Origin: a virus
Taxonomy: Duplodnaviria > Heunggongvirae > Uroviricota > Caudoviricetes
DNA length: 34,153 nucleotides
Direction: 5' to 3' (one strand)
IMG/VR virus record: IMGVR_UViG_2874968258_000005
A program made the translations under genes and the position numbers. How positions within the stretch are numbered: position 1 is the first letter of the stretch; each line of letters starts with the position of its first letter. This document shows, one piece after another, positions 2,938 to 28,758 of the stretch. The notes below the pieces were generated by a model that made no database searches, was not told the DNA's origin, and worked only from the letters and a program-made list of their open reading frames with translations.

Positions 2938-3469
2938 CGGGACGCTCCGGCCAGTTGATGGCGTTATATGTGGCTTTATCTGTGATGGTGCTGAAATCCA
3001 TCGCCTGCAGCGATTTCGCGTAAATACGGTACGCTTTCAGTTTTTCCCGGTCTTCGTCGCTGATTAGCCCCAGCAGCAGGTCTTCTTCCCATTCCCCTGT
3101 CCGGGCACTGACCTGAGCCAGAAGGGCATCACGCTCATCTTCCGCTTTGAGTCTGTAGTCAAAGACAAATTCATCATTGCGGTAAAACCAGTAACCCGGC
3201 GCGGTAATGCGGCGGTTGGCGGTAATATCAGGAACTTCAATAACACTGGCGTTACGGGGTTCAATGCCTGTCACATCCTTACCGACCCACACCACGCGCC
3301 CGTCTCCGGTGTAAACCATTTTTATGGTGTCACTGGCAAAGTTCTTCTGTTCTTCATACCAGTTTTTGCCGTCTTCCGAAAAAAGCCAGGTGACATCATA
3401 CTGTTTTGTCAGCTGATATTGTTCCGCGGTTTTCGGATTACCTGCCGTAATATTTTTTAAATGCAACAT
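2924..3469 (-). CDS. Tail fibre assembly protein (Mu U / lambda Tfa-like) for the first fibre
   Basis: 181 aa directly after the S-like fibre. C-terminal region (...KLKAYRIYAKSLQAMDFSTITDKATYNAINWPERP) resembles the Tfa C-terminal domain. Confidence 0.7.
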   Translation of the reverse strand: MLHLKNITAGNPKTAEQYQLTKQYDVTWLFSEDGKNWYEEQKNFASDTIKMVYTGDGRVVWVGKDVTGIEPRNASVIEVPDITANRRITAPGYWFYRNDEFVFDYRLKAEDERDALLAQVSARTGEWEEDLLLGLISDEDREKLKAYRIYAKSLQAMDFSTITDKATYNAINWPERPDAAA

Positions 3470-7196: not shown

Positions 7197-8257
7197 GTGG
7201 CCACCGCCTTTGTTTTTTTCGTCTTCGCTTTCATTTCCGGCATGTCCAGTGATTCAGGCGGAACCAGCGCCAGAACCGTCATCCTCCCCTGTGCGCCATC
7301 CGTCCATGTCACCCCGGATATCAGCCAGGTGGTTTTCAGGTTCTGAATGCTGTCGTCGATATCGACAAGGCGGTTGGTCTGCCACAGCGGGCCGCTGTCG
7401 CCCTGTTCGCGCCAGCCTGCCACCGTGATTTCCGTCGTGCGGGACTCTCCCAGCATCCGGGCTTTGTACCATTCCCCGCGAATGCTGGCCCCGCCCACGG
7501 TCAGGCTGTCTTCATTGACCAGAATGCGCGGGCGGTAACGGTTAATTTCCGGGTCTTCGGTGATGTACTGGCGACCGCCCACCATCGGGGCAGGCTGGCT
7601 GTCCCACAGTTTGCCACCGGCACTGGTGGTGCCCTTGATGATGTACTGGCTGTTACGCTCCCGCCAGCTGAAGCGCCCACGGGCGGCGAGGATATTTTTT
7701 CCCAGCACCAGTGACACGCCCGCGCGAACGGAAGAGGCGCGGGTGATAATCAGGTTACCCGCGCCGTCAGACGTCAGCAGAACGCCGCGCTGTTTTGCCA
7801 GCCGGTCGAGCAGTTCAAAGCCCGTTTCACCCTGTTCCAGAACGACAGACGCAAATGCCTCCCCGGTCGGGGTTTCCGTGATGACGGTTATCCCGAACGG
7901 GCGGCAGACATCAGCCGCCACCTGTTCAAGCCGCACGCCTTTCCATTTCCCGGACGAATGCACCACAGAGCAGTCCACCAGGTCGCCGGTTTTATCGCGC
8001 CCCATGACGCGAATCTCCACGTTTTCAGCGTCATAGCCGGGAATAAAATCATCGATATACCCCGTCAGCACGGTATCCGCGCCCAGCCTGACCGTGCAGG
8101 GTTGCCCCTCACGAATCACGCGCGGTGCCGCCGCTGACCAGCGGGTTGTCACACTGAGTTCAAACTCACCGGCAATCGCCTTCAGGGAACGGCTGACGGA
8201 CATTTCCGTCCAGCCTTCCCACAGTTTGCCGTCAACGGTAAGAATCACGGATTCCAT
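7187..8257 (-). CDS. Baseplate hub protein, Mu P / P2 gpD-like (late control D family)
   Basis: 356 aa between the N-like gene and the spike gene. Confidence 0.65.
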   Translation of the reverse strand: MESVILTVDGKLWEGWTEMSVSRSLKAIAGEFELSVTTRWSAAAPRVIREGQPCTVRLGADTVLTGYIDDFIPGYDAENVEIRVMGRDKTGDLVDCSVVHSSGKWKGVRLEQVAADVCRPFGITVITETPTGEAFASVVLEQGETGFELLDRLAKQRGVLLTSDGAGNLIITRASSVRAGVSLVLGKNILAARGRFSWRERNSQYIIKGTTSAGGKLWDSQPAPMVGGRQYITEDPEINRYRPRILVNEDSLTVGGASIRGEWYKARMLGESRTTEITVAGWREQGDSGPLWQTNRLVDIDDSIQNLKTTWLISGVTWTDGAQGRMTVLALVPPESLDMPEMKAKTKKTKAVATWD

Positions 8258-25285: not shown

Positions 25286-25735
25286 TTAAGGACGTCGTGG
25301 CGGACGACGAACGGGGTGAGGCAGGTTCGGGGAGTGGTAAAACAAATCCGGCTGGTATTTATTACACTCCAGACGCCGCATCCGCTTGATGGCCTTGTAG
25401 ACGGTTTTATACGTCACCCCGTAACGCTGAACCAGTTCAGGAATATTATGGCCGTTAAAATCACGCCAGATACGCATATCCCGGACAAGATTCTCCAGAA
25501 TATTCCCCCTCGGAACATAAACCTGCATCCCGCCGATATAGCGACAAATCGCCACAACCAGCTCAAGGGAATGGGCAGGGTCTGCGCCAATCCGGGCCAG
25601 CTCTTTACGCAGCAGTGCGTTCAGTTCAGAAAGTAACGCCGGATAAGCCGTGTTTTCCTGGTAATCGTTAAGGTATTCCAGAACGCTGTCGTCCCGGAAG
25701 TCTTCGAATAAATCCTGCTCTTTCATCTGTTTCAT
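25286..25735 (-). CDS. mor: Mor/C-family transcription activator (Mor-like)
   Basis: 149 aa with ...YPALLSELNALLRKELARIGADPAHSLELVVAICRYIGGMQVYVPRG...WRDFNGHNIPELVQRYGVTYKTVYKAIKRMRR, matching the Mor/C family as I recall it. Coupled to gemA upstream, as in Mu. Confidence 0.75.
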   Translation of the reverse strand: MKQMKEQDLFEDFRDDSVLEYLNDYQENTAYPALLSELNALLRKELARIGADPAHSLELVVAICRYIGGMQVYVPRGNILENLVRDMRIWRDFNGHNIPELVQRYGVTYKTVYKAIKRMRRLECNKYQPDLFYHSPNLPHPVRRPPRRP

Positions 25736-26283
25736 ACAGCAATTCTCCCGCTGTTTCGTGCGCGGGCATATGCACTGGTCAGTGCATCATAGCCGCGCAG
25801 CTTCCGCCCGGTTTCGCTCACAGGTAAAGGCACACCATGTCGGGCAAAGGCTTCCCGGATGCAGCGCATATGCCACTGTTTGAGCGTTTCGAGCACAACA
25901 TGCAACGATTCCCCGTGACACCAGGCCAGCGTGGAAACACCCTGACCGCCATTACGTCTGGCCGTCAGGCGTTCAACGTATTTGTCCAGCGCAGCGTCGC
26001 TGATATCGGAGACGAAACCATCAAGGAACATCTGCTGCCAGATTTTATAAATCTTCTCGCGCGGTGTGACATGCCCCTTAAAGCGACGGCGGGGATGTTT
26101 TTTCTGCTTCTTAAAACCGCGCTCTTTCATGGCATCGAGCACACGTTCCAGTTGTGCAACGGACAGCTCGCGGCAACTGGTTTTGCCCGTGTGCTGCACC
26201 AGAAAGGCGCGGTAAGTGTCATCGTCGAGTTGTAGATCACGACGGGCGACATGAATTAATTTAATCAGGGATGTGCGATTCAT
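25732..26283 (-). CDS. gemA: GemA-like regulatory protein (DUF1018)
   Basis: Start at the internal ATG giving 183 aa (MNRTSLIKLIHVARRDLQLDDDTYRAFL...). Directly upstream of mor. Confidence 0.7.
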   Translation of the reverse strand: MNRTSLIKLIHVARRDLQLDDDTYRAFLVQHTGKTSCRELSVAQLERVLDAMKERGFKKQKKHPRRRFKGHVTPREKIYKIWQQMFLDGFVSDISDAALDKYVERLTARRNGGQGVSTLAWCHGESLHVVLETLKQWHMRCIREAFARHGVPLPVSETGRKLRGYDALTSAYARARNSGRIAV

Positions 26284-26290
26284 TATCGTA

Positions 26291-26324
26291 CCTCCAGAAA
26301 AGGGGGCGGTGCGGCAACACCGCC
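26291..26324 (-). promoter_or_regulatory. Hairpin plus U-rich tract in the gemA leader (attenuator/terminator-like)
   Basis: Minus-strand GGCGGTG-uugccg-CACCGCC followed by CCCCUUUUCUGGAGG, the last part being the gemA RBS. Confidence 0.35.
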
Positions 26325-26356
26325 AGAATCCACTCACTAAACAGAGGAAACTTTTT

Positions 26357-26623
26357 ATGAAAAACAGTGAACAGCCTTATGATGTTGCAGGGTATGTCAT
26401 TGCCTCAAGGTTGCTGATACTCCTTGTCAGAAAGGGGCTAATTACCGCAGAAGAAGGCAAAACGATCCTCGAAGCCGCAGCAAGCGGAGCGGCAGAGGCT
26501 CCGGCATTGAGAACAACGAATAATCCCATCCTGCAAATATCACAGCTAATCACTGATACCATCAGTTTGTTAGACCAAGATTCTGATGAATATCAAAAGC
26601 CTCAGCCATCTGAGCATCCGTAA
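26357..26623 (+). CDS. Candidate opposite-strand small gene (89 aa) inside the early operon
   Basis: ATG at 26357 preceded by AGAGGAAA at 7-nt spacing. Occupies an otherwise non-coding gap, convergent with the minus-strand gene ending at 26562. Confidence 0.3.
   Translation: MKNSEQPYDVAGYVIASRLLILLVRKGLITAEEGKTILEAAASGAAEAPALRTTNNPILQISQLITDTISLLDQDSDEYQKPQPSEHP
26377..26562 (-). CDS. Candidate small hydrophobic protein (61 aa), translationally coupled to the upstream gene
   Basis: ATG overlaps the upstream stop (TGATG). Hydrophobic stretch GLFVVLNAGASAAPLAAASRIVL. Competes with the + strand ORF at 26357..26623. Confidence 0.3.
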   Translation of the reverse strand: MVSVISCDICRMGLFVVLNAGASAAPLAAASRIVLPSSAVISPFLTRSISNLEAMTYPATS

Positions 26624-26876
26624 GAATATCTTTATTTGATAGTCCCAGCCTGCGACGAATGTATTCCTCGCGGGCTGCTTCATTTTGTAGCGCCACGGCA
26701 GCTTCCACCTGGTTCATTTCACGGTTGATAATGCTCCGGACTTCTCTGGCGGTGAGGTCATGCTCAATACCATATTTAACAATATCATGCATACGTTCCA
26801 GCATCCTTAAATTAGCCATGACGTCATCAATATTAACTGGTGTGAATTTCATTTCTTTATTCTCTGGTTTATTCAT
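26562..26876 (-). CDS. Hypothetical early protein (104 aa, charged and helical)
   Basis: Start at the internal ATG with an AGAGG RBS. Low-GC segment. Confidence 0.5.
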   Translation of the reverse strand: MNKPENKEMKFTPVNIDDVMANLRMLERMHDIVKYGIEHDLTAREVRSIINREMNQVEAAVALQNEAAREEYIRRRLGLSNKDILTDAQMAEAFDIHQNLGLTN

Positions 26877-26905
26877 TTCGTAATACCTCTTCGCAATAAA
26901 AGATT

Positions 26906-27052
26906 TCATTGGGATAACGTTTTTGTATGCGCTCCATCACCTGCATACATGTCTGCTCTGTGGGCCAGATTTTTTTCCGTTACCGGAATGGCATCGCAGG
27001 CATCATTTCCGCAGGTGCCAACCAGCAGGACAAAGCCAGTTGACTTAATCAT
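26906..27052 (-). CDS. Candidate small protein (48 aa, Cys-containing)
   Basis: ATG at 27052 with an AGGAA RBS; overlaps the upstream gene by 8 nt. Confidence 0.3.
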   Translation of the reverse strand: MIKSTGFVLLVGTCGNDACDAIPVTEKNLAHRADMYAGDGAHTKTLSQ

Positions 27053-27584
27053 GCTCGCTGATTTCCTGTGTTTCCGCCGGAACCGGTGAATAATCAAGAA
27101 TGAGATAGCGCAGGACGTGGTCGGTGATATTCCAGCCACTGGAGCCACAAATAAAACGACCCAGCCGGATATCGATATAAGCCATCACAAAACGGGGCAT
27201 TCCCTGTTTACACATCTCGTCATCCACTTCAGCAACGATGTAAACCGACTCGCAGGTCAGTACGCCTGTCGCAAATTCTTTTGCCAGTGCCGGAATGGCA
27301 TTGCCTTCCAGCCAGGGCAAAGAGCGGCGGAACGTGCACCATTGCGCACCATCAACATCGGGGTGCTCCGTTGAATTTCGCCCGGCAGGCGGCTCTGCCC
27401 GGGAGCGCGGAACGTCGTAAAAGCCGTTCAGTTCAGTCAGCACTCCGGCATCAACCGCATCACGCAGGAAATACACCATTGCAGAGACCGGCATCCTCAT
27501 TTTGTCCGCCAGAACACCACAGGTCAGACGTCCGTAAGCCCGTAATAATGTGCTGACACCGTTCAGAACTTTTGCATCAATCAC
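27045..27584 (-). CDS. Hypothetical early-region protein (179 aa)
   Basis: ORF packed tightly between neighbours on the operon strand. Confidence 0.5.
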   Translation of the reverse strand: MIDAKVLNGVSTLLRAYGRLTCGVLADKMRMPVSAMVYFLRDAVDAGVLTELNGFYDVPRSRAEPPAGRNSTEHPDVDGAQWCTFRRSLPWLEGNAIPALAKEFATGVLTCESVYIVAEVDDEMCKQGMPRFVMAYIDIRLGRFICGSSGWNITDHVLRYLILDYSPVPAETQEISEHD

Positions 27585-27587
27585 CGG

Positions 27588-28136
27588 TTATTCCTCCGTC
27601 AGTGCCACAAATTCAGAATGTTTAATGCGCTGGCATTCGGCAGGAACCGGTCCCTTAACCTCACCATCCAGCAGGCACACCTCAAACAAAATGCCGAATC
27701 CGTCACGGCTGTGGTGCATCGTCCAGACTGATTTGAGATCAAACATGTTGGGTACAACATCAACCCCGAGTTCATTACACAACCAGACCGGGAATGTGGG
27801 ATATTTCCGGAGTTGCTCTTCATGTTCCTGAATAAGCGTCGCATTGTTTCGGCCTTCCGGTGTTGTTATATCCGGTACAACGCCATAAAACTGAAATCCA
27901 CCAATAAACAGTCCGTCTGATTTACCACGCCATAATTCCGGCGCTAATTGATTCATCCAGATACATTCAACCCGTTCATACCCTCTGTTACTGACAAGGG
28001 AAACACCGTCTGCGCCAAACGCACGCTGCAATGAGCAGATGATTTTGTCACGCTTAACAGAAACATCTTTCAGCCAGCGAATCGTATAACCGTTAGCGGC
28101 TGCGTCACTCAGTTTAAAATAAGCATATGCTTTCAT
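27588..28136 (-). CDS. Hypothetical early-region protein (182 aa)
   Basis: Start at the ATG preceded by GAGGAA (MKAYAYFKLSD...). Directly downstream of gam. Confidence 0.5.
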   Translation of the reverse strand: MKAYAYFKLSDAAANGYTIRWLKDVSVKRDKIICSLQRAFGADGVSLVSNRGYERVECIWMNQLAPELWRGKSDGLFIGGFQFYGVVPDITTPEGRNNATLIQEHEEQLRKYPTFPVWLCNELGVDVVPNMFDLKSVWTMHHSRDGFGILFEVCLLDGEVKGPVPAECQRIKHSEFVALTEE

Positions 28137-28233
28137 ATTCATTTCCTCTGGTCCTGATTCAGGCGCGAGCAATCCCCTGACGCATCGCGCCATAATTAAA
28201 AGAAAGTGAATTAATTAAATATTCGTCGTGGTA

Positions 28234-28758
28234 TTAAATACCGGCATCCTGTTCAAACGGAATAATAGAAAAATCTTCAATGCCTGATTTAACTGTAATT
28301 CCGGCGACACCTGCGACTGCTTTCGGCTCCAGTAAAATCGCTTCCTTGTTGATTTCCTGTTTCGTGCGAATAAAGCGTTGAAGGCCAAGACGCTCCAGTG
28401 TTTCCATCACCGCATCCACACCGCGAATACTTACTGATGGTGGGCGCTGACGCCATGACACATCACCGGTTACCAGGTTTGCCGTCTTCACCTTGCCGCC
28501 GTTCGTCAGTTCGTCACGGTTCGCTTCACACCATCCCTGAACGCCTTTTGAAAGGGTTTCGATACTGGTTTTAAGCGGTGCAATCTGTGAGGCGTATTTC
28601 TCCGTAATCTCAGCGATAGCGTCATTCATTTCCGTTTCAAGTCGTGCTGCTTCGCGTTGCAGGTCCCCAATCCGGCGGATATCACATACCACGGCATCGC
28701 GGGATTGCGGAACATAAGCCGCTGCGGCGTTCCTGATTCGTTTTGCGGGTTTAGCCAT
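28234..28758 (-). CDS. gam: Host-nuclease inhibitor protein Gam (Mu Gam family, DNA-end binding)
   Basis: 174 aa, the same length as Mu Gam, with MAKPAKRIRNAAAAYVPQSRDAV...WCEANRDELTNGGKVKTANLVTGDVSWRQRPPSVSIRG... Confidence 0.85.
   Translation of the reverse strand: MAKPAKRIRNAAAAYVPQSRDAVVCDIRRIGDLQREAARLETEMNDAIAEITEKYASQIAPLKTSIETLSKGVQGWCEANRDELTNGGKVKTANLVTGDVSWRQRPPSVSIRGVDAVMETLERLGLQRFIRTKQEINKEAILLEPKAVAGVAGITVKSGIEDFSIIPFEQDAGI

Follow-up and report, generated by a model that had tools for sequence, protein, structure and literature searches.

A probable opposite-strand gene of the gp15 family in the early region of a Mu-like Escherichia coli prophage

The virus record IMGVR_UViG_2874968258_000005 (Caudoviricetes) holds 34,153 nt of DNA, here called the window, in which positions 26284-28233 would form the distal part of the accessory, or semi-essential, early region of a Mu/SfMu-like prophage. 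The content proposed for this segment is four early-strand genes (a DUF5420-like gene, a homologue of Mu gp11, a frameshifted 60-aa gene and a homologue of Mu gp14) together with one gene of the gp15 family that is read from the opposite strand (Table 1). We regard it as very probable, from the sequence comparisons described below, that these gene identities are right and that, where two small open reading frames (ORFs) compete for the same DNA, the 88-aa ORF on the plus strand is the real gene of the pair. A first-pass annotation of the segment had pointed to this competition, between a plus-strand ORF with a good ribosome-binding site and a minus-strand 61-aa ORF coupled through TGATG to the gene upstream; both were found as described, and the conflict is a real one that also exists for the model phage Mu, whose public records disagree, RefSeq having Mup15 and GenBank Mu_54. 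The new findings are modest and consist of one diverged gp15-family member, a case from sequence against Mu_54 as a gene model, and a gene of phage D108 that lacks annotation.

The early genes of the window lie on the minus strand and comprise a B-like ATPase, the kil region, gam, the segment itself, gemA, mor and an endolysin. At the DNA level, positions 26284-27100 match a prophage of E. coli FDAARGOS_943 with 100% identity, and positions 27088-28233 share 92.9% identity with Shigella phage SfMu and 81-88% with Mu, D108 and Yersinia Mu-like phages. These identities indicate that the element is a Muvirus (Mu/SfMu-like) prophage of E. coli, and they place the segment, with gam on one side and gemA on the other, inside the semi-essential early region. 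In Mu the functions of this region have been defined genetically and include kil, gam, sot, arm and cim, together with gemA/B (PMC4553209). Connecting ORFs of the segment with sot, arm or cim would be speculation, and none of these ties was made with the tools used.

The plus-strand product matches phrog_8747 over residues 1-86 of its 88 (E=7e-26) and is 52-54% identical to the corresponding proteins of Mu, SfMu and Yersinia Mu-like phages in tblastn searches (54% over 87 aa for Mu, E=1e-18); in blastp against a small local database the match to Mu gp15 reached E=8e-30. Mu gp15 (NP_050619.1) and SfMu gp16 (YP_009152202.1) are likewise 88 aa long, are similar to it over their full length, and are encoded in the same slot and on the same strand, with a conserved Shine-Dalgarno sequence (SD) and ATG and the same 62-nt overlap with gp14, an overlap that the authors of the SfMu genome described as its largest (62 bp; PMC4406740). 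The window gene is nonetheless a diverged allele, without a DNA-level megablast match to these two genes; its product has an isoelectric point (pI) of 4.6 versus 5.8 for Mu gp15, and the central segment (residues ~38-58) is strongly different. The Prokaryotic Genome Annotation Pipeline (PGAP) annotates the gene as WP_072035588.1, and calls it in all E. coli prophages inspected except one, from E. coli 06-00048 (locus L034 in our numbering of the loci compared), where the ORF is intact at 458-724 and carries one amino-acid change. In that locus the gp14 homologue is called four codons longer, which illustrates how inconsistent the automatic annotation of this region is.

A common layout, in which gp15 sits on the opposite strand and is flanked by gp14 and gemA, is found in the window, Mu, SfMu and the E. 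coli and Salmonella prophages. In all of them the gene is read away from gemA and overlaps the 3' end of gp14 by 56-62 nt; in the window the overlap takes in the last ~20 codons of the gp14 homologue. A purine-rich SD is kept 4-9 nt ahead of the ATG (AGAGGAAA in the window, AGAGAGGA in Mu, AGAAGG in Salmonella, and AAAGGAAA ahead of the D108 ORF described below) while the flanks have diverged, and the intergenic DNA upstream carries indels that exclude longer readings of 116 or 134 aa; the ATG itself is conserved. A third lineage is found in Salmonella prophages, in the same position and orientation, with a product of 86 aa that is 44-50% identical to that of the window depending on the method. 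Twenty-four residues are invariant in the family, 21 of them within the first 37 positions. The middle of the protein (residues ~38-58) changes fast even among close relatives, and the tail, which overlaps gp14, is acidic and proline-rich. Among relatives with ~94% identical DNA, variable sites cluster at the centre of the gene (26471-26530), 14 of the 22 in gp15 being non-synonymous, which suggests relaxed or diversifying selection.

The family is very small, is limited to Escherichia, Shigella, Salmonella and Yersinia Muviruses and offers no functional lead. A word-indexed search returned only two close matches, and an exhaustive HMMER search of 1.8 billion representatives gave five true relatives and two long proteins, the latter taken as spurious (the one that was inspected is repetitive). 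A profile search recovered E. coli and Salmonella proteins only, and a scan of one genome per species gave nothing. In complete E. coli genomes the locus was present in 56 of 5426.

Deciding which strand codes is complicated by the way the two frames are superimposed, position 1 of the minus-strand codon pairing with position 2 of the plus-strand codon, with the third positions shared. Because the third codon positions coincide, counts of synonymous and non-synonymous changes, as well as single-nucleotide polymorphisms (SNPs) within lineages, are uninformative. Comparison between lineages is more telling. Each of the three lineages (window type, Mu/SfMu type and the 86-aa Salmonella type) has an intact plus-frame ORF, and in the Salmonella-type loci (L025-L030) the homologous minus frame lacks an ATG and is broken by an internal stop. 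When window and Mu are compared over the same 61 codons, they share 32 identities and a BLOSUM62 score of 155 in the plus frame, versus 25 identities and a score of 88 in the minus frame, and the plus frame is the better conserved in all inter-lineage pairs. Sequences were then evolved in simulation to the observed nucleotide divergence with selection on one frame, the plus-minus difference in BLOSUM62 being taken as the score. Selection on the plus frame gave a difference of +63 +/- 17, next to an observed value of +67; selection on the minus frame gave -23 to -60, the observed value being reached in 0 of 600 runs. The open antisense frame was examined in a chance test in which the gp15 protein was held fixed, its codons were shuffled synonymously, and the antisense stop-free run was measured. 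The antisense frame stayed stop-free for a mean of 60-70 codons. For the window the probability of a run at least as long as that observed was 0.21, and for Mu and the Salmonella type it was 0.86 and 0.87, respectively. The minus frame is open only because Tyr, His and Gln codons are scarce in gp15. Since the plus-strand ORF is intact in three lineages, is better conserved, fits the simulations and leaves an antisense run expected by chance, it is judged to be the real gene of the competing pair, with protein-level selection acting on the plus frame and not on the antisense frame. The suggestion in the first-pass annotation that a gene lies on the opposite strand is thereby borne out, this ORF being the better candidate of the two by conservation, integrity and simulation. 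The diverged gp15 alleles thus supply, from sequence only, an argument for the opposite-strand gene and against the Mu_54 model.

Some features of the predicted protein bear on its possible role. The AlphaFold (AF2) model of the window protein consists of three long helices (predicted local distance difference test score, pLDDT, 75.5), and no transmembrane segment is present. Searches gave no PADLOC or NCBIfam match, no Pfam match above threshold and no informative fold match; a SHOCT-like domain (PF22746) was discarded, since its match was confined to residues 23-40 and its 17.5 bits (E=0.0032) fell short of the cut-off of 27. For the proteins of the segment in general, PADLOC, NCBIfam and fold searches linked none by sequence or fold to a described anti-phage defence or anti-defence protein, and among the papers searched nothing turned up on the function of gp15, gp11, gp14 and DUF5420, the results being dominated by mouse Mup genes. 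As a small, soluble, acidic, three-helix protein, gp15 may act by binding another protein. Its transcription would run against the strong early promoter Pe, hence the protein would be produced chiefly under repression of Pe, and its best expression is expected in the lysogen because the gene is read against Pe. It can be suggested, tentatively, that gp15 is a prophage-state accessory ('moron'-like) gene. In the Pseudomonas transposable phage Fc02, overlapping genes of the early region lie on both strands, olg1/olg2 opposite gene 10, and are active at different stages of the life cycle (PMC9936078). Fc02 olg1/gene 10 and HK97 gp15 (morons, opposite-strand exclusion genes) resemble the window gene as small genes set against the surrounding operon of a temperate phage, and the analogy is one of layout only, with no similarity in sequence or fold. 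If expressed in the lysogen, gp15 would be the only Mu gene known to be read leftward besides the repressor, and it would become a defined candidate for one of the unassigned functions of the early region.

Several observations weigh against these conclusions about the gene and its role. The revised GenBank record of Mu (AF083977.1), the work of experienced annotators, has in place of gp15 the early-strand Mu_54 (55 aa, 7960-8127) and no opposite-strand gene, whereas RefSeq NC_000929 annotates Mup15 (88 aa, opposite strand, 7896-8162, with the 62-nt gp14 overlap). The minus ORF of the window is coupled to the gp14 homologue by TGATG, and its ATG-initiated length exceeds that in 97% of synonymous shuffles, being reached by only 2.6% of them (P=0.026); SNPs within lineages do not separate the two frames. 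With regard to expression, a scan for promoters ahead of gp15 showed no sigma-70-like site on the plus strand, the aligned upstream intergenic regions show by eye only poor hexamers, and the only downstream plus-strand site that resembles a terminator (26951-26965) is no more stably folded than shuffled sequence (z=+0.4). Gene orientation is all that the functional reading of gp15 draws on, and the gene is dispensable for plaque formation, because the plaque-forming, Mu-like Yersinia phage vB_YpM_3 lacks it.

The record, the coupling and the ORF length favour the alternative in which the 61-aa ORF, as the counterpart of Mu_54, is the real gene and the plus-strand ORF an accidental antisense frame. 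Such a gene would share the orientation of the early operon; the window and Mu versions lie on the same strand, each beginning at the gp14 stop, and are 40% identical over 48 aa. Moreover, in shuffles that leave the minus protein unchanged, the plus frame is still open over it in 53% of cases, so that openness of the plus frame proves little by itself. We nevertheless consider this alternative very unlikely: the Salmonella lineage keeps the 86-aa plus ORF and has the minus frame interrupted and without ATG, identity and BLOSUM62 scores of the minus frame are the lower ones in each inter-lineage comparison, and simulated selection on it never produced the observed pattern. In addition, the ORF has no SD in the window, no family above noise in Pfam, PHROGs, NCBIfam or PADLOC, and neither length (61 aa in the window versus 55 aa in Mu) nor C-terminus nor hydrophobicity is conserved. 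The first-pass annotation had called it hydrophobic, which holds in a moderate degree for the window ORF (grand average of hydropathy 0.96, best 19-residue Kyte-Doolittle mean 1.66) and to a lesser degree for the Mu counterpart (1.04). As for the record itself, the protein accession of Mu_54 (AAF01092.2) falls between those of gp14 and GemA, from which we infer that a product was replaced when the Mu record was revised. The revision of AF083977.1 has been acknowledged in a work in which the transmembrane domains of Mu are attributed to genes 19, 20, 23 and 25 only (PMC9239132); Mu_54 is not in that list and was therefore not regarded as a membrane protein.

A related alternative is that both ORFs are expressed as an antisense overlapping pair, the minus ORF from the early transcript in lytic growth and the plus ORF in the lysogen. 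Both are open with plausible initiation signals in two E. coli lineages, and Fc02 offers a precedent for such a pair in a transposable phage (PMC9936078). The minus ORF is not kept in the Salmonella lineage, though, its conservation equals that expected of an unselected antisense frame, and its existence is expected by chance, which leaves the pair a slim chance of being correct. The preferred interpretation is that the 61-aa ORF is a by-product of the plus-strand gene and no gene itself, as judged from these comparisons; the TGATG coupling and the low probability of the ATG-ORF length (P=0.026) leave room for its translation, at a low level, in the E. coli lineages. The gene models of the window are corrected by the inclusion of the 88-aa plus-strand gene, the removal of the 61-aa minus-strand ORF, a gp14 homologue of 104 aa, and the reading of a 48-aa ORF as a frameshifted gene.

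A GC-rich dyad lies between gp15 and gemA and is followed on the early strand by CCCTTTTCT and the gemA ribosome-binding site. Its stem is invariant in the window, Mu, SfMu, the Salmonella type, D108 and the gp15-less vB_YpM_3, while loop and flanks vary; in Mu it falls inside a stretch annotated as 'semi-early promoter' (AF083977.1), and on the minus strand it was flagged as resembling a weak intrinsic terminator, just before the gemA ribosome-binding site. A role as a Mor-type activator site was rejected, as the known Pm dyad (Pm/t9.2) differs in sequence. The idea that gp15 is a DNA-binding regulator acting on the dyad was set aside: the model has long bundle helices and no compact helix-turn-helix, and the dyad persists in phages without gp15. 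The early-strand RNA at 26278-26362 is predicted to fold around the hairpin so that the complement of the gp15 SD and ATG pairs with the SD and ATG of gemA (minimum free energy -25.2 kcal/mol, z=-2.4), and a similar pairing of the two initiation regions is predicted for the Mu and Salmonella-type loci. On read-through transcripts such pairing could mask gemA translation; it may also be simply the result of two divergent initiation regions facing each other.

The invariant hairpin, the annotated promoter adjoining the ORFs and this predicted fold are what could be cited for a view in which neither small ORF codes and positions 26284-26623 are conserved as a gemA semi-early promoter, a terminator or an antisense RNA. 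We find this view hardly credible. Inter-lineage substitutions are concentrated at the third codon positions of gp15 (33, versus 22 and 17 at the other two), the ORF keeps its ATG, its SD and a size of 86-88 codons at ~50% protein identity, an Rfam search of the locus gave no family, and the hairpin, which persists in phages without the ORF, is hence a separate feature.

The slot occupied by gp15 differs among relatives. Neither D108 nor Mu_3F6 has gp15, and the same place and orientation are taken by a 119-aa ORF with its own SD. This ORF lies within a 376-nt unannotated gap between gp14 and gemA in the RefSeq record of D108, and it is annotated in Mu_3F6. It shares with gp15 the slot, the orientation, the adjoining hairpin and the overlap with the 3' end of gp14. 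It matches phrog_38610, and a further family, phrog_32893, is common to it (E=5e-7) and to gp15 (as the second PHROG, 4.5e-8) through a core of ~45 residues. Direct similarity between the two proteins is remote (hhalign E=0.003, 22% identity over 37 columns), and the D108 product differs by an acidic N-terminal extension of 30 residues and has a pI of 4.3. On these sequence features, D108 is taken to hold an unannotated gene in the gp15 slot.

It is conceivable, though doubtful, that the slot upstream of gemA is a conserved Muvirus site for fast-diverging, small, acidic, helical proteins encoded on the opposite strand, made in the lysogen and acting in phage-phage or phage-host conflict. Its occupants would be gp15 in the three lineages and the 119-aa product in D108, and such action might take the form of superinfection control, for instance the 'cim' function, which has never been assigned, or of inhibiting a host factor. 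In vB_YpM_3 the gp14 stop (TGATG) joins the hairpin and gemA directly. The junction (2600-2668 of the vB_YpM_3 locus) connects the gp14 stop to the sequence that in Mu follows the start of gp15, and the stretch of gp15 overlapping gp14 survives as the C-terminus of gp14; this looks like a deletion between short TGATG repeats. Three Salmonella prophages (L025, L026 and L030) have a second opposite-strand ORF, of 111 aa, between gemA and mor (3052-3387, plus strand of the locus), for which no Pfam or PHROG family was found.

Table 1. Features of the segment and its surroundings, in window positions, with the ORF that occupies the gp15 slot in D108
Feature	Position	Strand	Basis or remark
gam	28234-28758	-	
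182-aa gene	27588-28136	-	identical to SfMu gp11; phrog_2260
179-aa gene, Mu gp11 homologue	27045-27584	-	blastp, Pfam, PHROG
Frameshifted 60-aa Cys-containing gene	26869-27052	-	PGAP, intact relatives
48-aa ORF, truncated product of the 60-aa gene	26906-27052	-	
104-aa gene, Mu gp14 homologue	26562-26876	-	blastp, PHROG; 115 aa from upstream ATG
88-aa gene, Mu gp15 (Mup15) / SfMu gp16 family	26357-26623	+	PHROG, tblastn, PGAP
Shine-Dalgarno AGAGGAAA of the 88-aa gene	26342-26349	+	7 nt ahead of ATG
61-aa ORF, Mu_54 counterpart	26377-26562	-	ATG overlaps gp14-homologue stop in TGATG
GC-rich dyad/hairpin GGCGGTG-N6-CACCGCC	26305-26324	.	between 88-aa gene and gemA
gemA	25732-26283	-	
mor	25286-25735	-	
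D108 119-aa opposite-strand ORF	L031 (NC_013594.1) 2154-2513 = record 7853-8212	minus strand of locus	RBS (ribosome-binding site) AAAGGAAA

The four minus-strand ORFs of 182, 179, 104 and 48 aa listed in the first-pass annotation were all found in their places. Its statement that they have no obvious family does not stand, as each has a counterpart in Mu or SfMu, with matches in the segment to PF25754, phrog_2260, phrog_1949, phrog_6075 and phrog_8747. It had held that assignment of all ORFs to known Mu early proteins, together with a lack of plus-strand transcript or translation, would count against it; on the homology side, all ORFs were indeed assigned to Mu/SfMu counterparts. All ORFs of the segment thus belong, by sequence, to families already annotated in Mu-type phages, and the segment is best described as ordinary Mu-type accessory early DNA.

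A protein identical to the 182-aa product carries the RefSeq name 'DUF5420 family'. The product itself has no Pfam family at E<=1, so the DUF5420 model (PF17457) is not matched; it is 27% identical to a PF17457-positive protein of a Salmonella prophage, with phrog_2260 common to both, and is best treated as a distant DUF5420 relative. Structure prediction gave a confident model, for which no PDB neighbour and no informative fold match were found; on the doubtful reading of the gp15 slot given above, it could be a second undescribed effector. The 179-aa product is 80% identical to Mu gp11 and 82% to SfMu gp12, and matches Gp11_C (PF25754) with 133.6 bits against a cut-off of 27 (E=3.3e-39) as well as phrog_1949 (E=1.9e-96). 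The gp14 homologue is 72% identical to Mu gp14 and likewise to SfMu gp15. In its 115-aa reading it matches phrog_6075 (E=1.5e-42) with an alignment that begins at residue 17, and two relatives (L014 and L033) use the 104-aa start, all of which indicates a length of 104 aa in the window. Sequence searches of the PDB with the 182-, 179- and 104-aa proteins were empty.

The 48-aa ORF was found not to be a gene of that size. It is the truncated form of a 60-aa gene, the frame of which is broken by one extra A in an A7 run at 26970-26976; an intact version of 183 nt, with one A fewer, is present in L014 and L033, and PGAP labels the identical E. coli locus 'frameshifted'. The N-terminal part matches phrog_16556 (E=6e-7), and blastp showed no similarity to Mu gp13. 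The extra A could mark a genuine pseudogene, or it could come from homopolymer slippage or an error in sequencing. Read on the plus strand, the A7 run forms the T-tract of a weak terminator-like site.

The description of the segment as a low-GC island stood in part. Its guanine-plus-cytosine (GC) content, 0.479, is among the lowest 5% of 1950-nt windows, compared with 0.546 for the whole window and 0.58 for the late genes, and ranges within the segment from 0.408 (gp14) to 0.533 (gp11). The remaining early region has 0.499, and equally low values occur in windows starting at ~29.5-29.7 kb (reaching ~31.6 kb); because of this, low GC is a trait of the whole early region and no distinct island is present. 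Horizontal acquisition of the segment as an island of anti-defence or host-manipulation genes would agree with the low GC, with the proximity of Gam, a known nuclease inhibitor, with the confident 182-aa model lacking a PDB neighbour, and with a gene content between gam and gemA that varies among close relatives as in an accessory hotspot. We think it unlikely, given the GC values of the remaining early region, the absence of any match to PADLOC or NCBIfam models and of structural likeness to a known inhibitor, and the fact that gp11, gp14 and gp15 are long-standing components of Mu and not recent imports.

The view that the segment belongs to the accessory and variable portion of a Mu-type early operon was upheld. 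Among the relatives, the DUF5420-like gene is absent in L033 and gp12 in the window, and extra genes occur between gam and gemA in SfMu and in Salmonella prophages. In the Salmonella prophages L025, L026 and L030, the stretch from ~7703 to the end of the locus, upstream of the DUF5420 gene, encodes a 212-aa DUF3164 (PF11363) protein, and the same position in L027 and L028 is occupied by Gam (PF07352).

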